Positions 31,952 through 61,065 of a stretch of DNA of 64,000 nt are shown one piece after another. Origin of the DNA: an uncultured Candidatus Binatia bacterium (GTDB lineage Bacteria; Desulfobacterota; Binatia; UBA9968; JAJDTQ01); assembly GCA_964291295.2 (NCBI GenBank), contig OZ219754.1, forward strand, positions 3,072,001 through 3,136,000. Direction: 5' to 3'. Below the pieces are notes generated by a model. It was not told the origin of the DNA, did not search any database, and worked only from the letters and a program-made list of their open reading frames with translations. A program made the translations under genes and the position numbers. Positions within the stretch are counted from its first letter, which is position 1. Each line of letters begins with the position of its first letter.

Positions 31952-33187
31952 ATGAAAGCCTTTTTCAGGGTGGTGACCACGGCGGAGGCGCTGGCGCTTC
32001 TCCGGCAGGTTCCGGCCGTGGGCACCGAGGCCGCCGATACCGTCGCGGCCCGGGGCCGCGTGCTGGCCGAGGAGCTGCGTTCCCCGGTCGACCTGCCCCA
32101 CTTCAACCGGGCGGCCATGGACGGCTACGCCGTCATGGCCCGGGACACCTTCGGGGCCAGCGCCGCGCTGCCGGCCTGCCTCAGGCTTGCCGGGACGGTG
32201 GAGATGGGCCAGGAGGTCACCCGCCGCATGGAACCGCACGAGGCCATGCGCATCTCCACCGGCGGCATGCTCCCGCCCGGCGGCGATGCCGTGGTGATGG
32301 TGGAGCACACCGAGGAGACCGGCGACGGCATGGTGGAGATCCATCGGAGCGCCCCGCCCTGGCTCAACGTGATCCAGGTGGGAGACGATATCCGCAAGGG
32401 CGAACCGGTCTTCCCGCGGGGCCGGCGGCTTCGGGCCCACGACCTCGGCGCGCTGACCGGCATCGGGGTCGCGTCGGTGCCGGTCTACAGAAAACCGCGC
32501 GTGACCCTGGTATCCACCGGCGACGAGATCGTCCCGGTGCACCGGGAGCCGCGCCCCGGACAGGTACGCAACATCAACCAGCATTCCCTGGCGGGGCTTG
32601 TCGCCGAATGCGGTGCGGTGTTGAACGATCTCGGCGTTGTCGCCGACAATCCGCGGGAACTGCGCGAGGCGCTGATCACGGGCCTGGACTGGGGCGATCT
32701 CGTGCTCCTGTCCGGCGGCAGTTCCATGGGAACCCGCGACGTGGCGCTGGAAGTCATCCGCTCGCTGCCCGACGCCAGAATCCGCTTCCACGGCATCTCC
32801 ATCAGTCCGGGCAAACCCACCCTTTATGCCGAGGCGGCCGGGAAGCCCGTGCTCGGCCTGCCCGGGTATCCGGTTTCCGCCCTCGTCATCTTCGATCTGT
32901 TCGCCGCACCGCTGATACGGACGCTGGGAGGCGAGGGGGCTGCGGCCGCGCCGTTTTTCCGCGGCACCGCAAGGGCCGTCCTCGCCACCAACATCTCTTC
33001 ACGGACCGGCCGGGAGGACTACGTGCGGGTCACCCTGGAACACAGGGACGGAACCCTCCGCGCCGCGCCGTTGCCGGGCAAGTCCGGAGCCATCTTCACC
33101 CTGGTCAAGGCCGACGGCATGGTCCGCATCGACCTTGACCGCGAGGGCCTGGAACAAGGGGAAGAGGTGGAAGTGGCGCTGTTCTGA
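31952..33187 (+). CDS. moeA: Molybdopterin molybdotransferase MoeA (paralogue 1)
   Basis: AMDGYAV, STGDE, SGGSSMG, PGKP, LPGYP. Confidence 0.93.
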   Translation: MKAFFRVVTTAEALALLRQVPAVGTEAADTVAARGRVLAEELRSPVDLPHFNRAAMDGYAVMARDTFGASAALPACLRLAGTVEMGQEVTRRMEPHEAMRISTGGMLPPGGDAVVMVEHTEETGDGMVEIHRSAPPWLNVIQVGDDIRKGEPVFPRGRRLRAHDLGALTGIGVASVPVYRKPRVTLVSTGDEIVPVHREPRPGQVRNINQHSLAGLVAECGAVLNDLGVVADNPRELREALITGLDWGDLVLLSGGSSMGTRDVALEVIRSLPDARIRFHGISISPGKPTLYAEAAGKPVLGLPGYPVSALVIFDLFAAPLIRTLGGEGAAAAPFFRGTARAVLATNISSRTGREDYVRVTLEHRDGTLRAAPLPGKSGAIFTLVKADGMVRIDLDREGLEQGEEVEVALF

Positions 33188-33188
33188 C

Positions 33189-35123
33189 ATGGCACGGAAA
33201 CGCTACCTCAGGAAGACCCCCCTGGAGCGGGCGCGGCAGGCGTTCCTGGACGCCGTTGACGGCAGCCCCCTGGAGGACGAGACGGTGGCTGTCGGCGAGG
33301 CGCTCCACCGGATCACCGCCGAGCCCGTGTTCGCCAGGATCTCGTCGCCCCACTACCACGGGTCGGCCATGGACGGGATCTGCGTAAGCGCGGAGGATAC
33401 CTTCGGTGCCACGGAGTTCTCCCCCCGGCAACTCCGGCCATTGACCGGCGAAGCCCGGGCCGATGGATGCTTCGCCTACCTGGACACCGGCCAGCCGCTG
33501 CCGTCCTGGGCCAACGCGGTGATCATGATCGAGAAGGTGCGGGAGCTCGAAGATGGCACCGTGTCCATCGACGAAGCGGCGGCGCCGTGGCAGAACGTGC
33601 GCCTGGCGGGCGAGGACGTGGTGGCCACCGAGTTGCTGCTGCCGCGGAACCATCGCCTGCGGCCCCATGACATGGGGGCCGTGCTGGCGGCGGGCCATAC
33701 CACCCTTCGCGTCAAGGCGCGTCCCCGGGTGGCCCTCATTCCCACGGGTGACGAGATCACCGCTCCCGGGGCAGCACCCCGCCCGGGACAGGTCATCGAT
33801 TTCAACTCCACCGTGCTGGCCGCCATGGTAGCCGAGTGCGGCGGCGCGGCGCAGACCTTTCCGGCCGTCGCCGACGACCCGGCGCTCCTGAAACGCGCGC
33901 TTGCGGACGCCCTCGAGGACCACCACCTGGCGGCCCTCATCGCCGGATCGTCCGCGGGCGCGCGGGACTTCACCGCGGCGGTGATCGACGACGCGGGCGA
34001 ACTGCTGGCGCACGGCATCGAAGTCATGCCCGGCAAGCCCGCGGTCCTGGGCGTGGTCGGCGGCAAGCCAGTCATGGGCATCCCCGGCTACCCCGTGTCC
34101 GCCATCGTCATCGCCCGCGAACTCCTCCAGCCGGCACTGCGGCGAATGCTGGGCACGGACCCCGGCGCCCCGGCGGAGGTCCGTGCCGTGGCGCCGCGAA
34201 AGATCCCCTCGCGACTGGGCCTGGAGGAGTTCGTCCGGGTCACGCTGGGAAAGGTCGATGACCGGCTCATGGCCGTTCCGCTGGCGCGCGGCGCGGGGGT
34301 CATCCACACCATGGTGCGGGCCGACGGATTCCTGCGCATTCCGGGGAGAGTGGAGGGGATCAACGCCGGCGAGGAGATCACCGTCGAACTGCTGCGGTCG
34401 CCCGGGGAGATCGCGCATACGGTGCTCTGCACCGGCAGCCACGACCTCTCCATCAGCGTGCTGGAAGACCAGCTCAAGTGCCGGGACCCGCGGTTCAGGA
34501 TCGCCACGGCCAACGTCGGCAGCCTCGGCGGACTGCATTCCATCCGGCGCGCCGAGACGCACATGGCCGGCACCCACCTGCTGGACCCCGCCACCGGCGC
34601 GTACAACATTCCGGACCTCCGGCGCGTGCTCCCGGATGTGCCGGTGGTGCTCGTGCACTGCGTCAGACGCCGCCAGGGCCTGCTGGTGCCCCGGGGCAAT
34701 CCCCTGGGGCTGTCGAGCATCGCCGACCTGGGGAGCCGGGCGCTGCGGTTCGTCAACCGGCAGCCCGGCTCGGGCACCCGCGTGCTGCTGGACTACAATC
34801 TCGCGCAACTCGGCATCGAAACCACCGCGGTCAGGGGATACGAACACGAGGCGTTCACCCACATGGCGGTGGCGGTGGCCGTGGCCAGCGGTCTGGCGGA
34901 CACCGGCCTGGGGATTCTTTCCGCCGCCAATGCGCTGGAACTGGACTTCATTCCGGTGGGCGACGAGCAGTACGACCTGGTGCTGCGGCGGTCGTTCCAC
35001 GACTCGCCGGCAGGCGCCGCGCTGCTGGCGGTCCTCCGCTCCGCCGGATTCCGGCAGGCGATGGAATCCCTCGGCGGCTACGACACCGGCACCAGCGGCG
35101 ACATCCTGTACGAGCAGGGATAG
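33189..35123 (+). CDS. MoeA fused to C-terminal PBP/LysR-type substrate-binding domain
   Basis: SAMDG, PTGDE, PGKP, PGYP, then GSHD, GSLGG, FVNRQPGSGTR. Confidence 0.92.
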   Translation: MARKRYLRKTPLERARQAFLDAVDGSPLEDETVAVGEALHRITAEPVFARISSPHYHGSAMDGICVSAEDTFGATEFSPRQLRPLTGEARADGCFAYLDTGQPLPSWANAVIMIEKVRELEDGTVSIDEAAAPWQNVRLAGEDVVATELLLPRNHRLRPHDMGAVLAAGHTTLRVKARPRVALIPTGDEITAPGAAPRPGQVIDFNSTVLAAMVAECGGAAQTFPAVADDPALLKRALADALEDHHLAALIAGSSAGARDFTAAVIDDAGELLAHGIEVMPGKPAVLGVVGGKPVMGIPGYPVSAIVIARELLQPALRRMLGTDPGAPAEVRAVAPRKIPSRLGLEEFVRVTLGKVDDRLMAVPLARGAGVIHTMVRADGFLRIPGRVEGINAGEEITVELLRSPGEIAHTVLCTGSHDLSISVLEDQLKCRDPRFRIATANVGSLGGLHSIRRAETHMAGTHLLDPATGAYNIPDLRRVLPDVPVVLVHCVRRRQGLLVPRGNPLGLSSIADLGSRALRFVNRQPGSGTRVLLDYNLAQLGIETTAVRGYEHEAFTHMAVAVAVASGLADTGLGILSAANALELDFIPVGDEQYDLVLRRSFHDSPAGAALLAVLRSAGFRQAMESLGGYDTGTSGDILYEQG

Positions 35124-35223
35124 GAACAGGCGGTCCATCCACCGGCGCGGCGGCGCCTCCCGGTGGGCGCATCGGGCGGGGCGGGCATCGGGCGGGCTGG
35201 ATACGGAAGCGGGTCCGGGGTGC

Positions 35224-35310
35224 TGGTGCCGGGAGCCGGACTTGAACCGGCACAGGCCAAGGCCCGCGGGATTTTAAGTCCCGTGTGTCTACCCATTCCA
35301 CCATCCCGGC
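35224..35310 (-). tRNA. tRNA-Leu(TAA)
   Basis: GCCGGGATGGTGGAATGGGTAGACAC..CT-TAA-AA..GGTTCAAGTCC..CCCGGCACCA. Confidence 0.97.
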
Positions 35311-35408
35311 GCAACACGTCTCCATAACTTCCGTCCATCCCTTCGTCAACCGGAGACTCCCGCGGCCGCGCACACGACCCGTTCCCTTGCGTGGCACCCG
35401 GCACTTCG

Positions 35409-35446
35409 CTACCGTGGTCCGTGAGATCTACCGTGGTCCGTGAGAT
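35409..35446. repeat. Exact 19-bp tandem duplication CTACCGTGGTCCGTGAGAT x2 upstream of the grdB-like gene
   Basis: Read directly. Confidence 0.95.
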
Positions 35447-35475
35447 CGGGTCAGCCAATGGCAGGGAGGCCAGGC

Positions 35476-36804
35476 ATGAAGCGCGTGGCACACGTCGTGA
35501 ACCAGTTCTTTGCCGGCATCGGCGGGGAGGAAAAGGCGGATGCCGTTCCGGGGATCCTCGATACCCTGGCGGGACCGTCGCGCGGCCTGCAAGGGCGGCT
35601 GCAGGGCGAGGCGACGGTGGCTCCCACCATCCACTTCGGCGACAACCACTTCCACGAACGGGCCGCGGAGGCACGGGCGGCCCTCCTGCGCGCGGTCGCG
35701 GCTGCGGAGCCGGACATCGTCGTGCTGGGTCCGGCGTTCAATGCCGGGCGCTACGGCCTCGCCTGCGTCGAGATCGGGCACCGGGTGACCACCGAGTTGG
35801 AGCGCGTGTGCGTAACCGCCATGCACGAGGACAATCCGGCGGTGGAAACGTACCGGCGATACCATAACCCCGGGCTGTTCCTCCTGCCCACAACGGAGAC
35901 GGCCGCGGGCATGGGCAAGGCCCTCGACGATCTCGGCCGTTTCATTGCCAGGCGGCTGCGCGGCGAGCCCCCGGGCACCGCCGGGGACGAGGGCTATCTG
36001 CCGCGGGGAATCCGGACCCAGGTGCGGAGTGGCCGGACCGGCGCCGACCGCGCCCTGGCCATGCTGCTCGACAAGCTGGAGGGAAAGCCCTTCGCCACCG
36101 AAATACCCGTCCGGAACTGGGACCGGGTGGCGCCCGCGGCCGCGGTCAAACGCCTCGACAAGGCCAGGGTCGCGCTGGTCACCACCAGCGGGGTGGTGCC
36201 GTGGGGCAATCCGGACGGCTTCAAGACCTTCCGCAACACGTTCTGGCGCAAGTATCCGGTGGCGGAGTTGAAGACCATGGAGCCGGGCATGTGGGAGGCG
36301 GTGCACGGCGGCTACAACGTCGCCGACATGAACACCAACCCACTCTACGGCGTTCCGCTGGACGCGCTGCGGGAGCTCCGGCACGAGGGCCGATACGAGG
36401 ATCTCTACCCCGCCTACTACGTCATACCCGGCAACCAGGGCTCGCCCTCGGCCATGCAGCGGGTGGGACGGGAGATCGCCGCGGAACTCAAGGCCAACAG
36501 CGTGGACGCGGCGCTGCTGGTCAGCACGTGAGGGACCTGCAGTCGCAGCGGAGCTGTGATCAGCAAGGAGTTGGACCGTGCCGGAGTTCCCGTGTCGATG
36601 ATCAGTGCCATGTTCCCTCTGGCGGAGCAGGTGGGCGCCAACCGCATCGTCAAGGGCGTCCGGATTCCCCATCCCTGCGGCGACCCGGGCCTGCCGTCGG
36701 AGGTCGACGGAAAACTGCGCAAGGCCATCGTCGAGACCGCTCTCAAGGCCCTTGAGGAAGACGTCGACGGGAGCACCGTGTTCACCCCGGACGCAGCGTC
36801 ATGA
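35476..36804 (+). CDS. grdB: Glycine/sarcosine/betaine reductase selenoprotein B-like subunit, 442 aa with Sec352 (TGA 36529-36531)
   Basis: NQFFAGIGGEEKAD, GPAFNAGRYG, ALVTTSGVVPWGNPD, HGGY; in-frame read-through gives VST-U-GTCSRSGAVISKELDRAGVP..VGANRIV..IPHPCGDP, joining track ORFs 35440..36531 and 36556..36804. Symbol marks the family, not the substrate. Confidence 0.9.
36537..36563 (+). promoter_or_regulatory. Putative bacterial SECIS hairpin
   Basis: GTCGCAGC-GGA-GCTGTGAT (8 bp with two G.U) plus CTG/CAG lower stem; G-starting apical loop 18 nt after the TGA. Confidence 0.7.
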
Positions 36805-38126
36805 GCAGCGGCCGGCACGGCACGCCGCTGGAGTTGGCGGAATTTCCCGTGAACGAGCTTCGGTCGGGCGGCGCGTTGCGATACCGCGGCCGGACCCTGG
36901 AGGTGGACGAGGCGGCGTTGGCGGAAACCGCTTCACGGGATCCCGGAGTCCTGTCCGCCAGGCTCGACATCATCCGGCCTGGCGAGCGGGTACGGGTCAC
37001 CGGGATTCGCGACATCGTGGAGCCCAGGGTCAAGGTGGCCGGCGGCGGTCAGGTGTTTCCCGGGATCACCAATCCGGTGGCCGCCGTGGGGGCCGGCCGC
37101 ACTCATCGGTTGTCCGGCATGACCCTCACCACCACCGCGGCGTACGAGGGCACCATCCGCACCGGCACCACGGCCCCGCGCAGCGCCATCCTCGACATGT
37201 GGGGACCGGGGTCCGAGCTTACCGGATTCAGCCGCCTCCCGAGCCTGGTCCTCACCCTCGCGCTCTCCCCGGACCTGATCGAGGCCGAGGCGCACCAGGC
37301 GATACAGGCCGCCGAGTACCGGGTGGCCCAGCGGCTGGCGGAAACCACGGTGGAGGCCAGGCCCGCGTCCATCGAGACCCACGGAGCGGCACACGGAAAC
37401 CCGGACCTGCCCAGGGCCGTGCTCATCGTCGGCTGCATCACCGAATCGGAGCACCGGCCGTCAGGCCTGGGATATTACGGGCTGCCGGTGCGTGAGTCGC
37501 TGTCCACGGTGGCCCACCCCAACGAGTTGCTGGACGGCGCGGTCACCGGCAATACCCTGAAGAGCATCGCCTACTACCCCACCACCTGGGACTGGCAGAA
37601 CCAGCCCCTGGCCCTGAGCTTGTCCCGGGAGCACGGCCGCCGGCTCGATTTCGCCGGCGTCATCCTGCTGCGTATCGGCTTCGGAAGGTTCCAGGAGAAG
37701 GAGGTGGCCGCGCACAACGCGGCCCAGGTGGCTGGCGCCCTTGGAGCGAAGGCCGCCCTGGTCACCTGGATCGGTTCCGGCAATGCCTTTATGGAAGTGA
37801 TGCTGGCGGTGCGCGCCTGCGAGCGGAAAGGCATCCGGACCGTGCTGGTTACCTACGAGTATGGCGGCAGGGACGGCGTGGACTCACCGCTGCTTTTCTA
37901 CGACGCCTGCGCCGACGCGGTGGTGAGCACCGGCAGCCGCGACCGCACCCTGGAACTGCCTCCGGCGGACCGGGTGGTGGGGGGGTATGAACGGCTTCAG
38001 GTTCTCAACTACCCCGGCGCACCGGTGGTGCCGGCCGCCGGCGCCATCCACCTCGACGCGGTCGACGCCATCATCGGCGGCACCGATCTCTGGGGCGGCC
38101 GGGACTGGACCTGCCGGGCGCACTGA
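36801..38126 (+). CDS. Glycine/sarcosine/betaine reductase component B proprotein (GrdE/GrdG/GrdI-like)
   Basis: IIRPGERVRVTGIRDIVEPRVK, GRTHRLSG, ILDMWGPG, HPNELLDGAV, DAVVSTG; ATGA overlap with grdB. Confidence 0.88.
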   Translation: MSSGRHGTPLELAEFPVNELRSGGALRYRGRTLEVDEAALAETASRDPGVLSARLDIIRPGERVRVTGIRDIVEPRVKVAGGGQVFPGITNPVAAVGAGRTHRLSGMTLTTTAAYEGTIRTGTTAPRSAILDMWGPGSELTGFSRLPSLVLTLALSPDLIEAEAHQAIQAAEYRVAQRLAETTVEARPASIETHGAAHGNPDLPRAVLIVGCITESEHRPSGLGYYGLPVRESLSTVAHPNELLDGAVTGNTLKSIAYYPTTWDWQNQPLALSLSREHGRRLDFAGVILLRIGFGRFQEKEVAAHNAAQVAGALGAKAALVTWIGSGNAFMEVMLAVRACERKGIRTVLVTYEYGGRDGVDSPLLFYDACADAVVSTGSRDRTLELPPADRVVGGYERLQVLNYPGAPVVPAAGAIHLDAVDAIIGGTDLWGGRDWTCRAH

Positions 38127-38223
38127 GCATGCGCACCGGGCTCGCAGACTCCGACAGAGTCATCATCGATATCAGGGAGCACTGACGCGAAACCGCTCCG
38201 GACAACGCTTCCAGGCACACGGC

Positions 38224-38472
38224 ATGGCAACACGACGACGGCTACGCAGAAGAACGCGACGGAAGAGGAGCCGCCGCGCGTGGCTCCTGGTTCCGGCGAT
38301 CATCCTGGCAGTGATGCTGGGGTGGCTGTACCGGATCGAGATCGTGAACCTCGCCACCTTCCGGTTCAGCGGGATCGACTTCAGCCGGCAGCCCGCGGGC
38401 ACTTCCGAGGGCGTTGCCCCGATCACGGAGAAGGAGCGCCGGGAACTGGAGGGGATCCTCAAGAACCGCTGA
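38224..38472 (+). CDS. Small hypothetical single-TM protein (82 aa)
   Basis: Arg-rich N-terminus, hydrophobic helix AWLLVPAIILAVMLGWLY, C-terminal ITEKERRELEGILK; high-GC3 codons. Confidence 0.6.
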   Translation: MATRRRLRRRTRRKRSRRAWLLVPAIILAVMLGWLYRIEIVNLATFRFSGIDFSRQPAGTSEGVAPITEKERRELEGILKNR

Positions 38473-38501
38473 TCCGGGAGGCTCCGCCGCCACCACTGGC
38501 G

Positions 38502-39581
38502 CTACAGCCCACCGGGCAGACTGTAGAAACGCTGGGCGTTGCGTGACAACACCGCGGTCTTGTCCTCTTCGGTGAGGTCTTCGCTCTCGATGACCTCGCC
38601 CAGTTCTTCCTTGCAGAACTCGTTGTTCACCTCGTGGGGAAAGTCCGAGGAGTAGACCCAAGGCTTGTTCCCCACGGTCTTGATGGCGTGGGCCAGATCC
38701 GGTTCGTGGCCCTCGCAGCCGACGAAAATCCGACCGCCCTCGATGTGCCGCCGGCAGTACTGGCTGACGCTCTCGCCCTTCTCGAGTTGCAGGAACTCGG
38801 CCCGGGGGTCGTGCTGGATGTGCGTTTCGTAGGAGCGGTCGAAGCGCTCGAGACACATGAGCAGCCAGGCGACGCCCCCCTCCAGGAAACCGATGCGCAG
38901 GTTGGGATACTTGTCGAAAATGCCGTTGAAGACGATGCCGCCGAAGGAGATCATCTGTCCGAACGGATGGCCGAGGGCGTGCACCGGGGCGTACGGATGG
39001 AGGTCATCCATGCCCAGGTTCTCGTGCGCGCCGCCGTGGATGCCCAGGCAGCAACCCAGCCGGTCGGCCTCCTGGTAGATGGGCCAGTAGTACTTGTGGC
39101 CGAGATGCAACTGGATGCCGGTGGAGGGCAGCATGGCGCCGCACATCCCCAGCTCCTCCACCGCCCGGCGCAGCTCCTTCACCGCCTCGTCCGGCTCCTG
39201 AAGCGGAATCAGAGCCACCGCCTGGAACCTCGGACTCTTGCTGACGTAGTTCTCGGCAATCCAGTCATTGTAAGCGCGGGCCAGGTCGATGGCCCAGTCC
39301 TGGCTCACCACCTTGCCGTAGGACAGGCCCACGGTGGGATAGAGGACCGTCCGGTCGATGCCGACGTCCTCCAGAAACTCCACCCAGCCGTCGAAGCCCA
39401 CCTGCTGGAATGAACCCTCCGGAAGCTTGTGCGCGTTGGCCGAATGCAGGTGGTCCAGCGGCGGGAACGGGTTGGACCAGCGCATCTGTTCCCGCACCGC
39501 CTTGGGAAAGCGGCTCGTGATGGCCGCCATGTCCTCCACGACGTGACCGTCGCCGTCAATGATCTGATACTTGTTTGCCAT
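38502..39581 (-). CDS. Amidohydrolase_2 family protein
   Basis: IIDGDGHV, VLYPT, AYNDW, FLEGG, SSDFPH; GGAGG RBS. Confidence 0.9.
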   Translation of the reverse strand: MANKYQIIDGDGHVVEDMAAITSRFPKAVREQMRWSNPFPPLDHLHSANAHKLPEGSFQQVGFDGWVEFLEDVGIDRTVLYPTVGLSYGKVVSQDWAIDLARAYNDWIAENYVSKSPRFQAVALIPLQEPDEAVKELRRAVEELGMCGAMLPSTGIQLHLGHKYYWPIYQEADRLGCCLGIHGGAHENLGMDDLHPYAPVHALGHPFGQMISFGGIVFNGIFDKYPNLRIGFLEGGVAWLLMCLERFDRSYETHIQHDPRAEFLQLEKGESVSQYCRRHIEGGRIFVGCEGHEPDLAHAIKTVGNKPWVYSSDFPHEVNNEFCKEELGEVIESEDLTEEDKTAVLSRNAQRFYSLPGGL

Positions 39582-39776
39582 GGGTAACCTCCGGGTAGGC
39601 CCGTGTCGTGGTGTCCGCAGATCCGGCGCCGCTGGCGGGCAGGCCCTTTCGACGGACCCGCCCGCCAGCGGGCTCCGGGCATTGAGCGGGTCTTAGCCGG
39701 CTCCGCGGGAATTGTCAAGAATGCGCCGAGGCCGGCCAGTGGCCCGCCCGAGGCGACTCGTGCTAAGGACCATGCC

Positions 39777-41078
39777 ATGAGCAGCACCCGACGAACCGGC
39801 GACTGGTCGCCGCCCGACATCCTCTCCCGCCCCGAGGTGGTCAAACTGTCCGAAGAGACCCTGGCCCTACCCGACATGGCGATCGGGAACCGCGAGGACA
39901 TCTTCCGCATCCAGGCGCTGGACCTGGACTGGGACATCGGTACCATGACCTGCGAACCCGAGGACGCGGGCCGCGTGCCGAAAGTTGCGGACGGAAGGCG
40001 CGCGGGCATCTTCCTGCTGCACGGCGGCACATCGGACTACAAGTCCCTGGAGCCGGTGGCCCGGATGATGGCCGCAAAATACGGCTTCAAGGTGACGCTG
40101 ATGACCTTTCCCGGGCGCCTGTACCTGCTGGACCCCTCCCGGGATTGGCCCGGCGACACCCTCGAACCCGACGGCACCGGCCGGACGCCGCTGTGGATCC
40201 GGGAGACCCGCATCACGCGCGACCAGTACCAGGTGGCCCGGGACGAGTCCCGGCGCGCCAGCTACGGCACCGTCCTGTCGCTGGCGGCCCGCGAGGGAAG
40301 CGAATTCTACCACCGCATGGCCGCCTGGCCCGCGGCCTTCGAGGAAGCGATGCGGGAGGCCTGCCGCCGGGAGTTTCCCGAGGCCGGGTATTCCCTGTAC
40401 GTCCACGGCCACTCCACCGGCGGACCCTTCGCCATGATCGCCGCGCAGCGGGTGGCCAATGTGGCCGGCGTCCTGGGGTACGGCTCGTCGACCTTCGGCT
40501 ACATCTACACCGCGGTCACCGGGGATCGGTGGAACTTGCCCTTCAACCACCTGCGGCTGCGGACTTGGCGCGACACCGCCCGCTACCTCCACGAAGGGCT
40601 CAAGGACAAGGGCTACGGCCTCCCCATGCTGATGGAACTTGCCATGGAGAAGTGGGAAGTGGAGAAGAGGCGCGCCAACTTCAAGGCCGAGGACTTCGTC
40701 CACAAGAACGGCGCCGGCGCGCTGGAACAGGCCGCGCGCGTCACCGCCCGCCGCCTTGGGTTGGGAGCGGCCGCCGAGCGGGAATTGGTGGGGCGCTATC
40801 TCGGATATCTGCGGGAGCTGGCCGGCCCCGGCGTCAAGCCGGTGCCGCCCGTGCTTTCGCTTCACGGTGTGGACGACGACACCGTCACCCTGCAGCGGTG
40901 TGGCGACTCCCGGCCGTTGTACGCCGCCATGAAGCCGGCGCCGAAGGTCGCCTGCGTCTCCCTGGGCGCCGGCGTCCATACCTGGGACCGCACCTGCGAG
41001 GATCTCCCGCGCGGCATCCTGCCGCCGGTGTGCCGGCTCTGGCACGACGCCATCGCGGGTGGCTACTTCGCGCCCTGA
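39777..41078 (+). CDS. Uncharacterised alpha/beta-hydrolase-fold protein
   Basis: LLHGG, GHSTGG, HGVDD, GVH spaced like a Ser-Asp-His triad. Confidence 0.7.
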   Translation: MSSTRRTGDWSPPDILSRPEVVKLSEETLALPDMAIGNREDIFRIQALDLDWDIGTMTCEPEDAGRVPKVADGRRAGIFLLHGGTSDYKSLEPVARMMAAKYGFKVTLMTFPGRLYLLDPSRDWPGDTLEPDGTGRTPLWIRETRITRDQYQVARDESRRASYGTVLSLAAREGSEFYHRMAAWPAAFEEAMREACRREFPEAGYSLYVHGHSTGGPFAMIAAQRVANVAGVLGYGSSTFGYIYTAVTGDRWNLPFNHLRLRTWRDTARYLHEGLKDKGYGLPMLMELAMEKWEVEKRRANFKAEDFVHKNGAGALEQAARVTARRLGLGAAAERELVGRYLGYLRELAGPGVKPVPPVLSLHGVDDDTVTLQRCGDSRPLYAAMKPAPKVACVSLGAGVHTWDRTCEDLPRGILPPVCRLWHDAIAGGYFAP

Positions 41079-46373: not shown

Positions 46374-46470
46374 ACTGACGCCTCGTCCGGGCGGAGAGCC
46401 CGCCACACCTTGACGGGCGCTTCCGGAGCGGCTAATGAACCTCTTCCACGGGCGGCCTTTCCGGCCGCCC

Positions 46471-46640
46471 GGTTCTCGGGTCCCTCACGGGATAAAAGGG
46501 AAACCGGTTGAAATCCGGTGCGGTCCCGCCACTGTGAATGGGAAGGCTTGCCTGAAGCCACTGTTCCCCACCGGGAATGGGAAGGCGGCAAGCCGGTCGA
46601 TGACGACCGGCCCATGAGCCAGGAGACCTGCCCGAGAATC
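46471..46640 (+). ncRNA. Cobalamin riboswitch upstream of tonB
   Basis: P1 GGTTCTCGGG/CCCGAGAATC, AAAAGGGAA, CCGGTTGAAATCCGG, CCCGCCACTGT, GCCACTG..GGGAAGGC, B12 box GAGCCAGGAGACCTGC; TTGACG-17-TAATGA upstream. Confidence 0.93.
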
Positions 46641-46759
46641 CACCGCAACCATGCTCTCCGAGGAGAGAGGAGGTGTCGCCATCCGCACTTGTACCCTGAA
46701 CGCTCCCGTTCCCGCCCGGTCGAAGCGGCACTGACCTGCGGCCGCCTGCAGCGAACGGG

Positions 46760-47503
46760 ATGCGCCGGCTTCTCTACTGCCTGTTGGGCTCGACGCTGAT
46801 CCACGGTCTGCTCCTGTGGGTACCTTTTCCCATGCGCGCCGGCGGCGAGGACGAGAGCGCTCTTCGGCCGTTGCGGATACGACTGGTGACGGCACCCCGC
46901 GCCGAGCCGGACCGCCGCGTTTCCCGACAGTCCCGACAATCCCGGCAGCACCGTGGAGTGCGGACGGCGGTACCTGCCAAGGCGCGGAAGTCCCCGCCGG
47001 CAAGGAAGCGGCCGGAAACGCCGGCCCGCCCCCGGATGGCGGTCGTGCCGGCACCACCGGAACCTGCCGCCACCACACCGGTTCGAGTCCGCCCGCTGGT
47101 GCAGGAGCCGGGGAAACGGCAGCCAGCCGGCCGTGACGGGAGCGTTGCGGAGAGAACGCATCGCGCCCGCGCCATCGCCCCCGACAAGCCCGCGGACCGG
47201 GGCATCGAGGCCAGCGCCGGTTTCAATCCGGTCCGCTATGCACGGACCGTGAAGCCCCGCTACCCCGCCACGGCACGACGGGCCGGATGGCAGGGCACCA
47301 CCGTTCTCAAGGTACGGGTGGACAGCCAGGGTGCGCCGGACCGGGTCACGGTGGATCGGACTTCCGGCTTCGACATCCTTGATGCGGCGGCCGTCAAGGC
47401 CATGGGACGCTGGAGATTTCATCCGGCGCGCCGCGGCAACCACCGCGTGGCCGCTTGGGTCCGGATCCCGGTGACATTCAAACTGAAGGAGGACAAGCGC
47501 TAG
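46760..47503 (+). CDS. tonB: Energy transducer TonB
   Basis: N-terminal TM with SxxxH, Pro-rich linker, PRYP..ARRAGWQG..SGFDILDAAA..WRFHPA..IPVTF. Confidence 0.9.
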   Translation: MRRLLYCLLGSTLIHGLLLWVPFPMRAGGEDESALRPLRIRLVTAPRAEPDRRVSRQSRQSRQHRGVRTAVPAKARKSPPARKRPETPARPRMAVVPAPPEPAATTPVRVRPLVQEPGKRQPAGRDGSVAERTHRARAIAPDKPADRGIEASAGFNPVRYARTVKPRYPATARRAGWQGTTVLKVRVDSQGAPDRVTVDRTSGFDILDAAAVKAMGRWRFHPARRGNHRVAAWVRIPVTFKLKEDKR

Positions 47504-47538
47504 CAAACCGATTGCGAGTCACCAGCAAACGACAAACT

Positions 47539-47711
47539 GAAGGCGGACGCCAGGGAAAGGGGTGAGAATCCCCTGCTGCCCCGCAACTGTAACGGCGACG
47601 AAAACCGCAACACGAGCCACTGCCCCTGCGACGGGCGGGAAGGCGCGGCGAGTAGGCCGGCAGCATCCAAGGACTGCCAGAAAGCCCAAGCCAGGAGACC
47701 TGTCCGTCTTC
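47539..47711 (+). ncRNA. Second cobalamin riboswitch upstream of btuB-like receptor
   Basis: P1 GAAGGCGGAC/GTCCGTCTTC, AGGGAA, GGGGTGAGAATCCCC, GCCCCGCAACTGT, GCCACTG..GGGAAGGC, AAGCCAGGAGACCTG. Confidence 0.9.
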
Positions 47712-47747
47712 CACAGCAATCCGCTTTCGCGGGAAAGGAAGATTGCC

Positions 47748-49682
47748 ATGAAGTTTCTGTTCCCGGGTGTTGTCACCCTTCTCGTCCTTGTCGTCCTTCT
47801 GACCGTTCAACCCGGCGCCGCGCAGTCCCTGGGAGACGACCCGCGGAAGACTCCGGCTGCCGCCAACGACATCCGGCAGCTTCCCGAAATCGTGGTGTCG
47901 GCCAGCCGCGTACCGCTGGAAGCCAAGGCCGTGGGCAGCGCGGTCACGGTCATCACCGCGGAGGAGATCGAGCGCAGGCAGATCCGCGTCGTATCCGACC
48001 TGTTGCGCCAGGTCCCGGGGTTGGCGGTACACCGTTCCGGCCCCGTCGGCACCCTCACCGCCGTGCGAATCCGCGGCGCCGAAAGCCGCCATACCCTGGT
48101 CGTCATCGACGGCATGAAGGCCAACGACCCGAGCAACACGGGAGCCACGTTCAACTTCGCGAACCTGCTCGCCGCGAACATCGAACGCGTCGAGATCCTG
48201 CGCGGACCGCAGAGCGGCCTCTACGGCAGCGACGCCATCGGCGGCGTGATCAACATCATCACGAAACGGGGGCGAGGGCCGTCGAAGGCGAGTCTGGCCG
48301 TCGAGGGCGGTTCATTCCGAACCGGCAATGTCTCCGCCGGTCTGAGCGGCGGCGGCGACCGCTACCACTACTCCGTGAACGCCGCCGGCTTCAGAACAGC
48401 CGGGATATCCATCGCCGCGGGTGGCGAGAAGGACGGCTACCGGAATCAGACCTACGGTGCCAGACTCGGGTTCGAACCACTCGGACGGCTGGAAATGGAG
48501 TTGTCCGGCCGTTACGTCAAGGACGACGTGGAAACGGACAACGTACCGACGGACAGCAGCGACGAGACCGCCTCGGACCACGCCATGGGCCGCATCCGAC
48601 TCGCCTACAGCCTTTTCGATGGCACATGGAAGCATGCGCTGGAGGCCGCCATGGACCGCACCCGCCGCACCTTCGTTAGCCAGCAGTCGGGAACGTTCCG
48701 GTACGACGGCAGGAAGTCGCGCTTCGGCTACGAGACGAGCCTCTCCTTCGAGACTTCCGCCGTGACCGAGGCCGCGCACACCATCGTCCTGGCCACCGAG
48801 CGGGGGAAGGACACCCGGACATCCGGCGGAACCAGCGACAACGCCACCCACCACGGCTACTCCGGCGAATACCAGCTGGGACTCGCAGACCGGCTCTTTC
48901 TTTCCGGCGGCCTTCGCTACGACGACAACCAACGCTTCAAGGACACGGCCACATTCCGGTTGACGGCGGCCTATGTGTTCGACGGTCTCAGAACGCGCCT
49001 GCACGGCAGCTACGGCACGGGGATCAAGAACCCCACCCTGTCGCAACTGTTCCAGCAGTTCGGCCGCGTCGGACCGAATCCCGACGTCGAGCCGGAGGAA
49101 AGCAGGGGATGGGACATCGGTATCGAGCAGGAACTGGCCGGCGGGCGGCTTGCCGTGGACGCGACCTATTTCGACAACCGTCTCGAGAATCTGATCCATT
49201 GGAACGACGCCGGCACTCCCTGGTCCGTGAACCCCGACGACGACTTCTACGACAACCTGGACGGGACATCGCGAATCCGCGGGCTGGAGCTTGCCCTGAG
49301 GGGCGAACCGGCGGCGGGGTTCAGTCTGTCCGCTCACTACACCTACACCGACGCAAAGGATCCGGACGGCAAACGGCTGCCGCGGCGCGCCCGGCACGTG
49401 GCGAGCGTGAACCTCGGTTACCAATGGCTCGACAGCAGGGCCAACGTCGACCTCGGCGTCGACTACAACGGCGAGCAACCGAACCGGATAACCGATCCCG
49501 TGATGCTGCACGACTTCACCCTGGTCCGCCTCGCGGCCGCCTACAGGATCACCCGGCAAGTCGAACTCTTCGGACGGATCGAAAATCTCCTGAACGCGGA
49601 CTACGAGGAAGTACCCGACTACCAGACCACGGGCATCGGCTTCTTCGCCGGCATCCGGGGCACGCTGGAACTGCTGCCGTGA
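47748..49682 (+). CDS. btuB: TonB-dependent receptor, BtuB-like vitamin B12 transporter
   Basis: Signal peptide, TonB box IVVSASR, IERVEILRGPQSGLYGSDAIGGVINIIT, IENLLNADY; preceded by a cobalamin riboswitch. Confidence 0.88.
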   Translation: MKFLFPGVVTLLVLVVLLTVQPGAAQSLGDDPRKTPAAANDIRQLPEIVVSASRVPLEAKAVGSAVTVITAEEIERRQIRVVSDLLRQVPGLAVHRSGPVGTLTAVRIRGAESRHTLVVIDGMKANDPSNTGATFNFANLLAANIERVEILRGPQSGLYGSDAIGGVINIITKRGRGPSKASLAVEGGSFRTGNVSAGLSGGGDRYHYSVNAAGFRTAGISIAAGGEKDGYRNQTYGARLGFEPLGRLEMELSGRYVKDDVETDNVPTDSSDETASDHAMGRIRLAYSLFDGTWKHALEAAMDRTRRTFVSQQSGTFRYDGRKSRFGYETSLSFETSAVTEAAHTIVLATERGKDTRTSGGTSDNATHHGYSGEYQLGLADRLFLSGGLRYDDNQRFKDTATFRLTAAYVFDGLRTRLHGSYGTGIKNPTLSQLFQQFGRVGPNPDVEPEESRGWDIGIEQELAGGRLAVDATYFDNRLENLIHWNDAGTPWSVNPDDDFYDNLDGTSRIRGLELALRGEPAAGFSLSAHYTYTDAKDPDGKRLPRRARHVASVNLGYQWLDSRANVDLGVDYNGEQPNRITDPVMLHDFTLVRLAAAYRITRQVELFGRIENLLNADYEEVPDYQTTGIGFFAGIRGTLELLP

Positions 49683-50134: not shown

Positions 50135-50229
50135 GGAGAAGGAAGGTGCCCGGTGGCGCCGCTGGTCTTCAAAACCAGTCTGAGGGCCGTAAGGTTCTCG
50201 GAGGGTTCGACTCCCTCCCTTCTCCGCCA
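50135..50229 (+). tRNA. selC: tRNA-Sec(TCA)
   Basis: 95 nt; 8-bp acceptor stem GGAGAAGG/CCTTCTCC; GCTGGT-CTTCAAA-ACCAGT anticodon arm; long variable arm; GGTTCGACTCC; GCCA end. Confidence 0.95.
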
Positions 50230-50395: not shown

Positions 50396-50914
50396 CTAGA
50401 GCGGCGGAATGAAGGCCCCGAACAGAACCCCGGCGAAAAGATCGACGGCGAGGATTTCCTCGAAGATGAAGTAGAAGAAACCCAGCGCCAGGGCGGTGAT
50501 GAAAGTCGAACCGGGCCAGCCGATGCGGCCCTGGTAACGGGTGAAGAAGACCGCGAACAGAAAAGTCGACAAGTAGAATCCGCACAGGAACACCAGCAGC
50601 CCGAACGCGCCGAACCACACGAACATGCGGACGATGAGGCCCAACTCGCCGGCCCGGGGGCCGTGCCCGGCCTCCGCCGTTTCGTCGCCTGCGGTCCCGG
50701 CGGCGTTGGAGAGAACGTCCTCAAGACTGACCTCGAACGCGCTCAGGATGGCTGGCCAGCGCTCCCCGGCCAGGCACAGCGCCGCCAGCACCACGGTGGG
50801 AAACGCCAGCACCAGGGGAACGAAGCCGGCCATGCCCCCGTAGGAGAACGACCAAGTGAAGAACAGCAGCGCGGTGGCCACCAGGATCACACCCAGGAGC
50901 ACCGACCCCTTCAT
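50396..50914 (-). CDS. tctB: Tripartite tricarboxylate transporter TctB family
   Basis: Four to five TM segments, LCGFYLS; overlaps tctA stop. Confidence 0.8.
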   Translation of the reverse strand: MKGSVLLGVILVATALLFFTWSFSYGGMAGFVPLVLAFPTVVLAALCLAGERWPAILSAFEVSLEDVLSNAAGTAGDETAEAGHGPRAGELGLIVRMFVWFGAFGLLVFLCGFYLSTFLFAVFFTRYQGRIGWPGSTFITALALGFFYFIFEEILAVDLFAGVLFGAFIPPL

Positions 50915-52404
50915 GACACCGCCTTCGCTTTCCGGCTCGACAGCCACGGCAGGCAGAGCATGAGAATGCTCAGCAACATCAGCGCGATGGTCACGGGCCG
51001 CGTGAGGAAGATGGCGTAGCTGCCGGCGGAGATCTGCAGCGATTGCACGAAGGACAGCTCGGCGCGGACCCCCAGCAGAAAGCCGATGACCAGCGTCACC
51101 AGCGAGAAACCGAAACGGTTGAACGCGAAGCCGAGAACGCCCGCGGCGATGGCGATGCCGATGTCCCAGACGTTCTCCCGGGCGGCATACGCGCCGCCGA
51201 TGGAGAGCAGGAACGCCGCCGGAACCACATAGCCCACCCGCAGCGTGGTGACCCGGGCCAGAATGTCGGCGCCGAATGCGGCCATGAGACTCGCCAGAAA
51301 GTTGGATATCACGAAGCCGAAGATCAGCACGAACACGATGTCCATGTGCTCGCGCACGAAGAAGAAACCGGGCTGAAGCCCGTGGAGGATGAAGGCGCCC
51401 AGGAGCACGGCCATGCCGGCGCTGCCCGGGATGCCGAAGATGATGGTGGGCAGCAGCGCGCCGCCGTCCTTGGCGTCATTGGAAGCCTCGGAAGCGATGA
51501 TGCCCTCCGCGGTGCCGGTGCCGAACTTCTCCGGATTCTTCGAGAACTGCACGGTCATGGAATAGGAAAGAAAGTTCGCCAATACCCCGCCGATACCGGG
51601 GATGATGCCCGCCAGGATCCCTATCGCCGAGCTTCGCACCAGCGTCAACTTGTACTGGAACACCTCCAGGAATCCCCTGAAGGCGCCGAACAGGCCCACC
51701 TTGAGCCGTGCGCCGCCCTCGGCGATGGTCTCGCCCCGCAGCACGTGGTTGACCAGTTCGGCGATGGCGAAAAGGCCGATGAAGAAGGGCACCAGCGGGA
51801 TCCCGTCCCACAGGTAGTTGTCGCTGCCGAAATTGAACCGCAGCACCCCGTGCACCGGGCTGAAGCCGATGAGTGAGAGCAACACGCCGATGCCGGCGGA
51901 GACCAGCCCCTTCAGCATGTTGCCGCGGGCCGCGTAGGCCACCGTCAGCAGGCCGAAGACCACCAGCATGAAGAACTCGGGAGGTCCGAAGGAGAGCACG
52001 ATGATCTTCACGAACGGGATCAGGATCATCAGGAAGCACATGCCCACCACGGCGCCCAGAAAGGACGAGGCCGCGGCCAGACCCACCGCCCGGCCCGCCT
52101 CGCCGCGCCGGGCCATGGGATGGCCGTCAAAGCAGGTGGCCGCATTGGGCGCCTCGCCCGGGATGTTGAGCAGGATCGCCGGAACCGACCCCCCTTCGGT
52201 GGCCGCCCCCATCATCCCGGCCATGAGGAACATGGCCGTTACCGGGTCCCACCCGAAGGTGAAGGTCATGCCGATGGTCAGGCCGGCCAGGAACAGTCCG
52301 GGGAGTGCTCCCAGGATCAGGCCGGTGACGGCGCCGACGGCGAGCACGAGCAGATTCGCCGGCTGGCTGAGCTGGCCCATCGCCTGCACGAGAGGTTCCC
52401 ACAT
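50911..52404 (-). CDS. tctA: Tripartite tricarboxylate transporter permease TctA
   Basis: GALPG, AILLNIPG, FDGHPM, EASNDAKDGGALLPT..GIPG, GLQPG. Confidence 0.93.
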   Translation of the reverse strand: MWEPLVQAMGQLSQPANLLVLAVGAVTGLILGALPGLFLAGLTIGMTFTFGWDPVTAMFLMAGMMGAATEGGSVPAILLNIPGEAPNAATCFDGHPMARRGEAGRAVGLAAASSFLGAVVGMCFLMILIPFVKIIVLSFGPPEFFMLVVFGLLTVAYAARGNMLKGLVSAGIGVLLSLIGFSPVHGVLRFNFGSDNYLWDGIPLVPFFIGLFAIAELVNHVLRGETIAEGGARLKVGLFGAFRGFLEVFQYKLTLVRSSAIGILAGIIPGIGGVLANFLSYSMTVQFSKNPEKFGTGTAEGIIASEASNDAKDGGALLPTIIFGIPGSAGMAVLLGAFILHGLQPGFFFVREHMDIVFVLIFGFVISNFLASLMAAFGADILARVTTLRVGYVVPAAFLLSIGGAYAARENVWDIGIAIAAGVLGFAFNRFGFSLVTLVIGFLLGVRAELSFVQSLQISAGSYAIFLTRPVTIALMLLSILMLCLPWLSSRKAKAVS

Positions 52405-52527
52405 ATCGGTTTCGTTCCCTGGATGCGGCCCTTGCGGTTCCCGGTGTCCCGCCGGTTGTCCGCGTGATGGTGACAAGCGCTCGCGACGGGGCCTGACTCC
52501 GGCCGCGGGCGCTGTCGGGGCCGGCGC

Positions 52528-53511
52528 CTACCTGGCCCTGGCGGCCTCCTTCATTTCCTCGAGGTTGGTCTCGAACAGGTTCTGATAGTACTTCAGATCC
52601 TGGGCCACGGCCGTCCCGGGACCCTCCGTGAGGACGATGGACGAGGCCTTCTTCCAGTCGAGGTAGAGCTTGTCCCTCATGGCCTTGAGCAGCAGATCTT
52701 CAAGGATCTTCGCCCGCTCCTCGGGGACGCCCGGCGGGGCGCCGAAGGCGCGCAGGTCGCTGAAGTAGAAGTCGTGGCCCATTTCGTAGGAGGTCGGCAC
52801 GTCGGGGGCGTTGATGGCCCGCTTCCTGTCCAGTTGCACCACCGGGCGCAGGTCCGTCCCCAGGTAGGAGGTCACCGACGGATGGTCGATGGGCTGCGCC
52901 CAGACATCGAAGTCACCGCGCAGCAGCGCCGGCAGCGACTCGCCCGTGCCCCGGTAACCGGCCACCACGTGAAAGTCGATGCCGAAGGCCTTGGCGGCCA
53001 GGAACGAGCCCAGCCACCGGCCCACGCCCACACCCTCGACTCCCCAGGTGACCCGCTTGGCCTTTTGCAGGTCCGCGATGGACTTGTGGGGGCCCTTGGC
53101 CGATACATGAAGCCCGAAGGGGTCCGCGCCCACCCGGGCAAGCCAGGTGTATTTGCCGGTCTCGAAGCCGAGGGGCCTGTCCGACAGCATCTGCTGCCCG
53201 AGCATCCCCGACGACTGGAAGTGGGCGATGGTGTAGCCGTCAGGCTTGGCGCGGTACACGAACACGGCGGCGCGAAGGCCGGCGGCGCCGGTGACGTTCT
53301 TGACGATGACGTTCACGCCCTCGGGCAGGAATTTCTTCATGCTCCGGGCCACGGCGCGGGCGATGGCGTCGTAGCCGCCGCCGGGAGAGAAGGGCACGAT
53401 CAGGTTGATGTTGCGGTCGGGAAAGGCCGCCCGGGCCTGGGACAGGGGCAGACTTGCGGCCAGGCCGAGGACGGCGGCGCCCACCAGAATTCGGGTCATC
53501 AGATTGCGCAT
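52528..53511 (-). CDS. tctC: Tripartite tricarboxylate transporter substrate-binding protein (TctC/Bug)
   Basis: Signal peptide, FPDRNINLIVPFSPGGGYD, KPDGYT, YRGTG, PDVPT. Confidence 0.92.
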   Translation of the reverse strand: MRNLMTRILVGAAVLGLAASLPLSQARAAFPDRNINLIVPFSPGGGYDAIARAVARSMKKFLPEGVNVIVKNVTGAAGLRAAVFVYRAKPDGYTIAHFQSSGMLGQQMLSDRPLGFETGKYTWLARVGADPFGLHVSAKGPHKSIADLQKAKRVTWGVEGVGVGRWLGSFLAAKAFGIDFHVVAGYRGTGESLPALLRGDFDVWAQPIDHPSVTSYLGTDLRPVVQLDRKRAINAPDVPTSYEMGHDFYFSDLRAFGAPPGVPEERAKILEDLLLKAMRDKLYLDWKKASSIVLTEGPGTAVAQDLKYYQNLFETNLEEMKEAARAR

Positions 53512-53762
53512 CGTGTTCCTCCCGTCAAGTGGACTGAAACGCGGACTGAAACGCGTTCCAGGTTCGTGCTGCAATGGGACTAAAGGTTTGCCGATGGCTG
53601 CCGACATGCAAAACAGGCAATAAGCCTGACCTTTTATGGGCTGTGCCCCGGACTTGTCAAGGGCACCGCCCCAAATTGTCCGTCGCCGGCCGTTCGTCGC
53701 CGGCCGCCGGGAACCGCGGGGACCGGGCGCGGCGGCGGGGCCCGGAGCCGGCAAGGTCCGGA

Positions 53763-53791
53763 TTGACTCGGGACGGCGCAAACGATAAGTT
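53763..53791 (+). promoter_or_regulatory. sigma70-type promoter for ssb
   Basis: TTGACT-17 nt-TAAGTT. Confidence 0.5.
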
Positions 53792-53873
53792 CCGGCGATA
53801 TGATCCACGCAGATTTGTCTTGCGCAAACCTGCTCCACGCAAACCTGCTCGCCACCATCCGGATGAGGTCGTC

Positions 53874-59098: not shown

Positions 59099-59106
59099 GG
59101 GAACGG

Positions 59107-60470: not shown

Positions 60471-61065
60471 GACAGGATGCCGGTACGACGGAGCCGGAGA
60501 CCGGGAGGAGACCGCCTCGTGCCAACTTCTCCCCTGCGGGAATGCGGCACAAGATCCTCCCCAGCCACGCGAAAGGCACCGCGAAGGTACAGCACGCAGG
60601 CCGGGAGGCTTTTCGCCCACCGGCACCTCCCTGAACCGGCGGAACAGCAATGGGCTGATTGCACAGGTGTAGCGTTTCGCGGCAACACCCGTCAAACGGT
60701 GCCGTATCGATCCAGTATCGATCCAGTATCCCGGCGCCGTTCGGCGCCGCCGGGCCGACCCGGGCCGCCGGCGGACATGCCGCAATGCAGGAAGGCCGGC
60801 ACGTCCCTGCAAAACCCGGTGGAATACACCTTGACCGCACCCCGCCGGGGTCGCAACCCTGTCGTGGTTCGTCTGCGGACCCCCGGTGGAGGATACCTTG
60901 AGCCCACCCTGACCTCCGGTCCGATTCTCCGGGGCCACCTCTCCCATCGGCGACCGTACCACGTGGGACAACGACCTGGGACAATGCAACAGGCACCCGG
61001 CCGACCCTCCCATGCCCACCGCCTCGTTTGCCTGACCTTCCGCTTTCGGCTACAGAGAAGGCTGC

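Follow-up and report, generated by a model that had tools for sequence, protein, structure and literature searches.

The 64-kb window analysed here (67% G+C), that is, the whole stretch of DNA, has its closest relatives among chromosomes and metagenome-assembled genomes (MAGs) labelled Candidatus Binatia or 'Deltaproteobacteria', and it carries two overlapping genes related to the substrate-binding subunits of selenium-dependent glycine reductase. By its sequence, the first (35476-36804) is a genuine selenocysteine (Sec) enzyme gene of the GrdB family, and the second encodes a partner of the GrdE family. We judge it reasonably likely that the pair is the substrate-specific protein-B module of a dispersed Grd-type reductase, composed of a GrdB-like selenoprotein and an unprocessed subunit of the GrdI/FarE kind, and that its partner proteins A and C are encoded elsewhere on the chromosome. 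The pair probably acts on a substrate other than those of the known Grd enzymes.

Under translation table 11 the first gene falls into two open reading frames (ORFs): 35440..36531 ends at a TGA, and the same frame resumes at 36556..36804. Reading TGA 36529-36531 as U joins them into a single protein that runs from ATG 35476 to the stop codon 36802-36804 (...ALLVST-U-GTCSRSGAVISKELDR..., with U as residue 352). A preliminary description of this DNA had noticed both the split and the read-through sequence VST-U, and the ORF coordinates and the 442-residue product bear it out. The protein matches Pfam GRDB (PF07355; E = 1.3e-104, 350.7 bits, cut-off 22) and, over residues 3-436 of 442, the NCBIfam subfamily TIGR01918 'various_sel_PB' (415.6 bits, cut-off 65.45). 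Searches of the PDB by sequence and by profile returned no match to this protein or to its partner.

To compare the Sec codon among homologues, we aligned the GrdB-like genes of the window and 80 further loci (L numbers), leaving out L035, a partial match, and entering L028 and L060 with two rows each, which gives 82 rows. All 82 genes have TGA at the Sec column and no other stop. Among the best 120 database matches, 117 are 350-353 amino acids (aa) long and 119 end at V-x-T, the residues preceding Sec; automatic gene prediction therefore ends these proteins at the UGA, a point that matters for annotation in its own right. Conservation is higher in the 90 residues that follow the UGA than in the 351 residues ahead of it, with identities of 88.0 versus 82.1% in five subclade rows, 69.1 versus 57.3% in 12 deeper-clade rows and 48.9 versus 40.6% in the 64 other rows.

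Downstream of the UGA lies a hairpin of the selenocysteine insertion sequence (SECIS) type. Its folding energy is unremarkable (z = 0.29; 119 of 200 shuffled sequences fold as well), and Rfam at gathering thresholds gives no SECIS family match at this site. Since the energy does not rise above that of the shuffles, covariation was used as evidence for a SECIS instead, scored on the 82 aligned sequences (76 distinct) by five measures against 500 shuffles. The stem is paired in 84.9% of cells, and four of its eight pairs have changed on both sides, in 55 cells. None of the 500 shuffles matches the observed values on four of the measures, six reach that of the fifth (the number of pairs with two-sided change), and slid registers score far lower. 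In the loop, G22 and G23 are invariant across the 82 sequences. In pair 19:27, position 1 of the Cys/Ser codon faces the wobble position of the Ala codon that follows; the pair is UA in 56, AU in 19 and UG in one of the 76 distinct sequences, with no unpaired case. Hence the TGC...GCA of canonical genes reads AGC...GCT in the window, the Cys-to-Ser change being matched across the stem by the change of the Ala codon from GCA to GCT. The hairpin was also compared with general distance and loop rules of 'bSECIS' elements.

A gene for tRNA-Sec, on which decoding of the UGA depends, lies 13,606 bases from TGA 36529, and a scan of the window for in-frame TGA codons with coding signal on both sides returned only 36529, besides three ordinary gene ends. 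Were the TGA a real stop, the gene would be truncated or a pseudogene and the downstream frame open by chance. The 351-aa ends set by gene callers in 117 of the 120 best matches and the ordinary hairpin energy would suit that view, but we give it next to no chance, given that 82 of 82 homologues keep the TGA before an open, better-conserved continuation of 90 codons, that the stem covaries, that the window itself encodes tRNA-Sec and that the next gene is translationally coupled via ATGA at the true stop. Decoding of UGA 36529-36531 as Sec is thus well supported by the sequences compared. The preliminary description had proposed genuine Sec, citing the hairpin and a tRNA-Sec 13.6 kb away; the tRNA is confirmed, and the hairpin is upheld by its covariation, not by its energy.

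Table 1. Features of the window (positions in the 64-kb stretch) that are discussed in the text
Feature	Position	Strand	Remarks
LigB/LigA extradiol dioxygenase genes (O2-dependent)	2303-3533	-	
Two adjacent MoeA-type molybdopterin genes	31952-35123	+	directly upstream of the pair; one is the 662-aa PRK14498 type
tRNA-Leu(taa)	35224-35310	-	upstream of the pair
Perfect tandem duplication, 19-nt unit	35409..35447	+	Tandem Repeats Finder: period 19, 2.1 copies, 100% matches
Shine-Dalgarno-like AGGGAGG	35463..35469	+	6 nt 5' of ATG 35476; GGAGG kept in 5/5 close relatives (upstream alignment)
grdB-like selenoprotein gene	35476..36804	+	442 aa; predicted Sec352 from TGA 36529-36531; motif ST-U-GTC-SR-S
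In-frame UGA, predicted selenocysteine	36529..36531	+	TGA at the same column in 82/82 homologues
SECIS-type hairpin	36542..36560	+	8-bp stem 36542-36549/36553-36560; loop GGA 36550-36552; begins 10 nt after UGA
grdE/grdI-like partner gene	36801..38126	+	441 aa; ATG overlaps the grdB-like stop (ATGA)
491-aa protein	39603-41078	+	no Pfam/NCBIfam match; kept beside the Amidohydro_2 gene in L002, L003
Two cobalamin riboswitches	46461-46649, 47528-47721	+	109 and 80.2 bits
tRNA-Sec (anticodon tca)	50135..50229	+	ARAGORN; Rfam RF01852 75.2 bits, gathering threshold 47
TctCBA tripartite carboxylate transporter	50396-53838	-	
Carbon monoxide dehydrogenase (CODH)/xanthine-dehydrogenase-family large subunit and flavin adenine dinucleotide (FAD) subunit	56684-61019	-	

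Within the family, both proteins of the window fall below the cut-offs of the equivalog models. The GrdB-like protein scores 391.1 bits against GrdF (NF040794, cut-off 800), 385.6 against GrdB (TIGR01917, 602.2), 375.6 against GrdH (NF040795, 775) and 89.7 against PrdB (TIGR04483, 300); its partner scores 180.3 against GrdG (NF040793, 780), 87.5 against FarE (NF053623, 675) and 23.1 against PrdA (TIGR04480, 700). Among the other non-canonical B proteins, none of those from L018, L021, L023, L028, L037, L045, L050 and L060 reaches any equivalog cut-off either. In a quick, unrooted maximum-likelihood tree of the B rows with Shimodaira-Hasegawa-like approximate likelihood-ratio test (SH-aLRT) supports, the window and L001-L003, L006 and L016 form a group of six (support 100), nested in a group of 18 (support 100) that comprises Binatia, 'delta' and Thermodesulfobacteriota MAGs. 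Next to this 18-row clade come two Acidobacteriota rows (support 92), and the canonical clade is separate.

The 18-row clade also has a redox motif of its own. The B protein of the window reads U-G-T-C-S-R-S, with the first Cys present and the second replaced by Ser. All 18 clade rows read U-G-[TS]-C-[ST]-R-S, whereas 62 of the 64 non-clade rows end the motif with Cys; in the looser form U-x-x-C-x-x-S the motif occurs in 18/18 clade rows versus 2/64 outside. The preliminary description had remarked on U-x-x-C-x-x-S in place of U-x-x-C-x-x-C and had asked for a tree; the substitution proves to be fixed in the clade, and the tree sets the protein apart from canonical GrdB. Sequence motifs for GrdB and GrdF are given in PMC9751293. 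The GrdB motif is found in 36 and the GrdF motif in four of the 82 rows, all of them of Bacillota, Spirochaetota or Synergistota types, and neither is found in the 18 clade rows. Compared with that GrdB motif, the window has VxN for YxN, FGD for CGD, VHGGYN for AHGGxD and IPGNQGSP for TxGNxTxV. As judged from these alignments, the pair is a distinct, conserved and uncharacterised branch of the GrdB/GrdE family. We found no description of a U-x-x-C-x-x-S clade in the literature, although supplementary trees such as Fig. S6 of PMC9751293 may include it, and a literature search pairing Binatia with glycine reductase found no paper.

The partner belongs to Pfam Gly_reductase (E = 1.5e-82), in agreement with the earlier assignment of a GrdE-family second gene in the order B then E; the term 'proprotein' used for it then is not upheld. 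Canonical GrdE carries the processing site DGAIVSGN-C-VSA-C-DKN, whose cysteines are Cys242 and Cys246 in the Clostridium fallax protein (L040), and is reportedly cleaved at Cys242. At this site the partner in the window reads DGAVTGNTLKSIAYYP (GNTLKSIAYYP versus SGNCVSACDKN), with Leu and Ala at the columns of the two cysteines. Neither processing cysteine occurs in any of the 19 E rows of the clade, whereas both are present in 48 of the 58 other rows. In place of the pyruvoyl-forming Cys242, 13 deeper-clade rows have Thr and the subclade of the window has Leu or Met; the Thr rows are the E-like proteins of L004, L007-L010, L012-L015 and L017. Because both pyruvoyl-forming cysteines are absent, the partner is probably not a proprotein or pyruvoyl enzyme, as has been described for GrdI and FarE. 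GrdI of betaine reductase lacks the processing cysteines and is not processed to a pyruvoyl enzyme (PMC10838667).

When used as a query against 1.84 billion representatives, the partner gave 1014 matches at E<=1e-3 and 193 at E<=1e-30. Among the best 150 50%-identity representatives of the partner family, just three of 118 full-length proteins have the Cys pair. On this side of the family, partners without the Cys pair are thus both frequent and varied, and most of the diversity there is biochemically unassigned. The clade partners have one close representative in this best-150 list (P0280, 58% identity), the next ones reaching <=44%.

The genes for proteins A, C and D have to be sought outside the window. 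GrdA, GrdC, GrdD, GrdX, TrxA and TrxB are absent from its 64 kb, both in tblastn searches with the canonical L040 set (E<=1e-3) and in six-frame translations searched with profile hidden Markov models built from 7-46 canonical sequences each (E<=1). However, three loci of the same clade (L004, L005 and L015) have GrdC-beta and GrdA immediately after B/E, with GrdC-beta at 516.4 bits in L004 and 502.6 in L015 (cut-off 450) and GrdA at 196.9 and 189.4 bits, respectively (cut-off 130); in L004 the order is E, E, B, E, then GrdC (9415-10857) and GrdA (~11070-11537). The L004 GrdC as a query led to P0210, a GrdC-beta protein on a 3,949,999-bp contig that is the chromosome of L002. P0210 in turn led to P0272 (80% identical; GrdC-beta 476.9 bits, cut-off 450), which lies on a 3,648,015-bp contig, the size also listed for the contig of P0004, the window's own GrdB fragment. 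Because the two contigs agree in size, protein C beta is probably encoded elsewhere in the genome of the window; within the window, P0272 has no tblastn match at E<=10. A grdA gene adjoins grdC in all six loci that have GrdC without GrdD (L004, L005, L015, L045, L050 and L060). These six, in whose flanks GrdC-beta and grdA occur without grdD, come from Binatia, Thermodesulfobacteriota, Chloroflexota and Thermincola; canonical clostridial clusters have grdD after grdC. For TrxA and TrxB, the profiles gave just three weak matches in the 17 clade loci (E<=1), all outside the B/E genes (TrxA in L014, TrxB in L011 and L009).

Several observations weigh against a dispersed reductase fed by this pair. 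GrdC was placed in the genome of the window by an exact match of contig sizes, not by a DNA read, and this GrdC-beta (P0272) is the sole partner gene so far placed there. Adjacency of A and C is seen in only three of the 17 clade loci, and neither lies within 10 kb in the four close relatives that have 10-kb flanks (L002, L003, L006 and L016). GrdD, which reportedly has a role in the formation of acetyl phosphate, is found by profiles (E<=1) near none of the 17 clade loci and is not found in L045, L050 or L060 either, so the acetyl-phosphate step of the textbook mechanism is unaccounted for. The genes that flank the pair in relatives (glyoxalase/VOC, PIG3-type oxidoreductase, TctC/TctA, an ATP-binding cassette (ABC) transporter and a Rieske protein) are uninformative on the substrate. 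Finally, a 2026 review names the U-x-x-C-x-x-C motif and suggests it as the site of interaction with GrdA (PMC13188914); the second Cys of this suggested contact is missing here.

These points bear on the view of the preliminary description, that of an autonomous two-gene selenoenzyme working without GrdA and GrdC. Such an enzyme would resemble D-proline reductase, in which the product is released by direct reduction and neither protein A nor protein C nor acetyl phosphate takes part. As a GrdB-related enzyme that operates without substrate-level phosphorylation, D-proline reductase offers a precedent (PMC13188914). The A, C, D and thioredoxin genes are missing from the window and from the 10-kb flanks of all four close relatives, 14 of the 17 clade loci are flanked by neither A nor C, no member of the clade retains the second Cys of UxxCxxC and GrdD is absent from every clade locus. 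We nevertheless consider autonomy quite unlikely. Bona fide grdC and grdA genes directly follow B/E in three clade loci, GrdC-beta proteins sit on contigs that match the window's contig and the L002 chromosome in size, the GrdB-like protein is full-length at 442 aa and the PrdB model gives it just 89.7 of the 300 bits required; in addition, 10-kb flanks leave room for distant partners. The earlier statement that the pair lacks grdA, grdC and grdD therefore stands for the 64-kb window, whereas a 'stand-alone' enzyme is not supported, with grdC-beta and grdA adjacent in L004, L005 and L015 and P0272 on the size-matched contig.

For the dispersed reductase that we favour, a course of reaction may be outlined from homology with glycine and betaine reductase (Andreesen 2004, as cited in PMC10838667 and PMC13188914). 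The module would bind a substrate of the type X-CH2-COO(-) without forming a Schiff base, and Sec352 would attack the alpha-carbon, so that X is released and a carboxymethyl-selenoether is left. The carboxymethyl group would then be handed to selenoprotein A (GrdA) and on to protein C (GrdC), both presumed to be encoded elsewhere on the chromosome. Cys355 may serve as the resolving or protecting partner of Sec352, with which it could form a selenenylsulfide. Many bacteria have multiple protein B complexes that serve one common reductase (PMC10838667), and the pile-ups of paralogues and the two gene orders seen in the clade fit such a set of substrate-specific modules.

Glycine and sarcosine require a carbonyl for Schiff-base formation (PMC10838667) and are unlikely substrates here, since the partner probably has none. 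By the same token, the C-N cleavage proposed in the preliminary description is not indicated, as the absence of a carbonyl lifts the requirement for a primary or secondary amine as substrate; its broader suggestion of a different substrate outside Stickland fermentation is plausible, in view of the O2-dependent enzymes in the genome. An ordinary dispersed glycine (GrdB/GrdE) or sarcosine (GrdF/GrdG) reductase would agree with the family membership of both proteins and with a GrdC gene that is probably elsewhere in the genome. This is very improbable all the same, because the scores stay below the equivalog cut-offs (385.6/602.2 and 391.1/800, and 180.3/780 for GrdG), the motifs of PMC9751293 occur in 0/18 clade rows, the pyruvoyl cysteine needed for the Schiff base is absent and the clade is separate in the tree.

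The leading class of substrates comprises a quaternary amine such as a betaine, or a compound with another good leaving group. Alternatively, the pair could simply be betaine reductase protein B (GrdH/GrdI) in its Binatia form, an orthologue that turns glycine betaine into trimethylamine plus an acetyl unit. A partner without processing cysteines, as reported for GrdI (PMC10838667), the name 'betaine reductase' that Joint Genome Institute (JGI) automatic annotation gives to some relatives, and the grdH homologues mentioned for proteobacteria of open-ocean metagenomes (PMC9321204) all speak for it. Yet the GrdH model (375.6/775 bits) fits no better than GrdF (391.1) or GrdB (385.6), no betaine transporter (opuD or BCCT type) was encountered in the window or the scanned flanks of the clade, and the clade paralogues imply several specificities, so that we regard a betaine reductase proper as unlikely. 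A substrate-specific module for an X-CH2-COO(-) compound that requires no Schiff base is our preferred reading of the pair.

The pair lies, as described at the outset, between tRNA-Leu and unrelated genes in a window that also encodes LigAB (Table 1). Two MoeA-type genes and the tRNA-Leu precede it; an Amidohydro_2 gene on the reverse strand, the unnamed 491-aa protein, lipA and a MetE-like gene follow. The order MoeA...B-E...Amidohydro_2 is kept in the four close relatives with 10-kb flanks, where additional genes take up 1.8-6 kb on either side and encode glyoxalase/VOC proteins, a PIG3-type oxidoreductase, TctC/TctA, parts of ABC transporters, a Rieske protein, a cupin and an alpha/beta hydrolase. 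The window has a minimal version of this variable spot. In L002, L006 and L016, TctC/TctA genes come right after the B/E pair.

Around the deeper-clade pairs the arrangement is more varied, with both gene orders and pile-ups of paralogues: L004 has three E-like genes around one B-like gene (2599-9276) and L008 has two E-like genes (521-5973). L007 and L014 carry separate B/E pairs on contigs of one MAG. Binding proteins of the SsuA/NMT1 type occur in six of the eight deeper-clade loci scanned (L004, L007, L009, L010, L014 and L015) and directly adjoin the pair in three; their enrichment, with 7 of 55 scanned proteins in the clade flanks versus 1 of 52 scanned in the window (Fisher p = 0.06), is a lead only. 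UbiD and Amidohydro_2 genes of the decarboxylase type, luciferase-like monooxygenases (beside the pair in L010 and L017) and flavin reductases recur nearby. In L009 (2744-11332, +) a single strand encodes an NMT1-type binding protein, a bona fide methanethiol oxidase (MtoX; 742.1 bits, cut-off 650), SCO1/SenC, a flavin reductase, a PhnS-like binding protein and the E-like and B-like proteins, which is possibly an organosulfur operon around a Grd-like pair. These neighbours are leads to organosulfur or aromatic-acid substrates for the paralogues concerned, not for the pair of the window. Beyond them, we offer as a speculation with a low chance of being right that the U-x-x-C-x-x-S clade comprises Sec-dependent reductive C-X lyases for non-amine carboxymethyl compounds, foremost organosulfur compounds (sulfoacetate, thetins, methylthioacetate) in the deeper paralogues. 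They would feed a pared-down system of GrdA and GrdC-beta without GrdD in largely aerobic or facultative Binatia, and each paralogous pair would have an uptake system to itself.

Other features of the window concern control and neighbouring functions. The 19-nt tandem duplication, ~28 nt upstream of the grdB-like start codon, overlaps a stretch kept 5' of the orthologues in three of five close relatives and is a possible promoter or operator candidate. L001, L003 and L006 have a single similar copy of the unit (CTTCGCTACCGTG...) at the same place. A consensus scan of 35100-38600 for promoters and terminators left the + strand empty. By ESM Atlas features alone, the 491-aa protein has as its closest neighbours unnamed clusters rich in Binatota and clusters resembling alpha/beta-hydrolases or lipases. 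The first cobalamin riboswitch precedes ORF 46760-47503; the second overlaps the called start of ORF 47562-49682, which resembles a TonB-dependent B12 receptor, and the true start of this ORF is therefore probably further downstream. Genes for molybdoenzymes are numerous in the window.

Textbooks treat Grd-type selenoenzymes as part of Stickland fermentation, the anaerobic fermentation of amino acids. To our knowledge, their specificities are few: glycine, sarcosine, betaine, D-proline and, recently, fluoroacetate. The pair described here is part of a large branch, found in uncultured Binatia and 'Deltaproteobacteria', that shows paralogue expansions, a changed redox motif and, probably, an unprocessed partner. 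Knowing its substrates would add new compounds, and organisms that are not seen as fermenters, to the range of selenium-dependent C-X cleavage.

Among characterised systems, betaine reductase protein B of Peptoclostridium/Eubacterium acidaminophilum (GrdH and GrdI) shares with the pair a Sec subunit of the GrdB family and an unprocessed partner of the GrdE family (for GrdI, see PMC10838667), and both would be expected to feed shared proteins A and C. It differs in that the window protein scores only 375.6/775 with GrdH, in the Binatia-type host with its O2-dependent enzymes and in having no betaine transporter nearby. For its non-amine X-CH2-COO(-) substrate, FarB/FarE, the fluoroacetate reductase of Cloacibacillus porcorum, draws on the common reductase system; it resembles the pair in its altered CxxC region and in an E subunit without both processing cysteines (PMC10838667). 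In contrast to FarB, which is without the CxxC residues altogether (PMC10838667), the B protein of the window retains the first Cys; the FarE model gives its partner 87.5/675, and neither a radical S-adenosylmethionine (radical-SAM) gene nor an oxalate/formate-type antiporter stands beside the pair.

Glycine reductase protein B of Clostridium fallax (L040) consists of members of the same two families, with ~39% identity in B and 28% in E, and agrees in the positions of Sec and of the SECIS hairpin. Whereas its locus reads grdX-trxB-trxA-grdE-grdA-grdB-grdC-grdD, the window has only B and E, in the order B then E; UGTCTRC in L040 corresponds to UGTCSRS, and the processing site SGN/CVSAC to GNTLKSIA. 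D-proline reductase (PrdA/PrdB) likewise pairs a homologous Sec subunit with a homologous partner and needs no proteins A and C. PrdB, however, is a protein of ~26 kDa that matches the C-terminal half only (89.7/300), and PrdA (model score 23.1/700) is a pyruvoyl proprotein.

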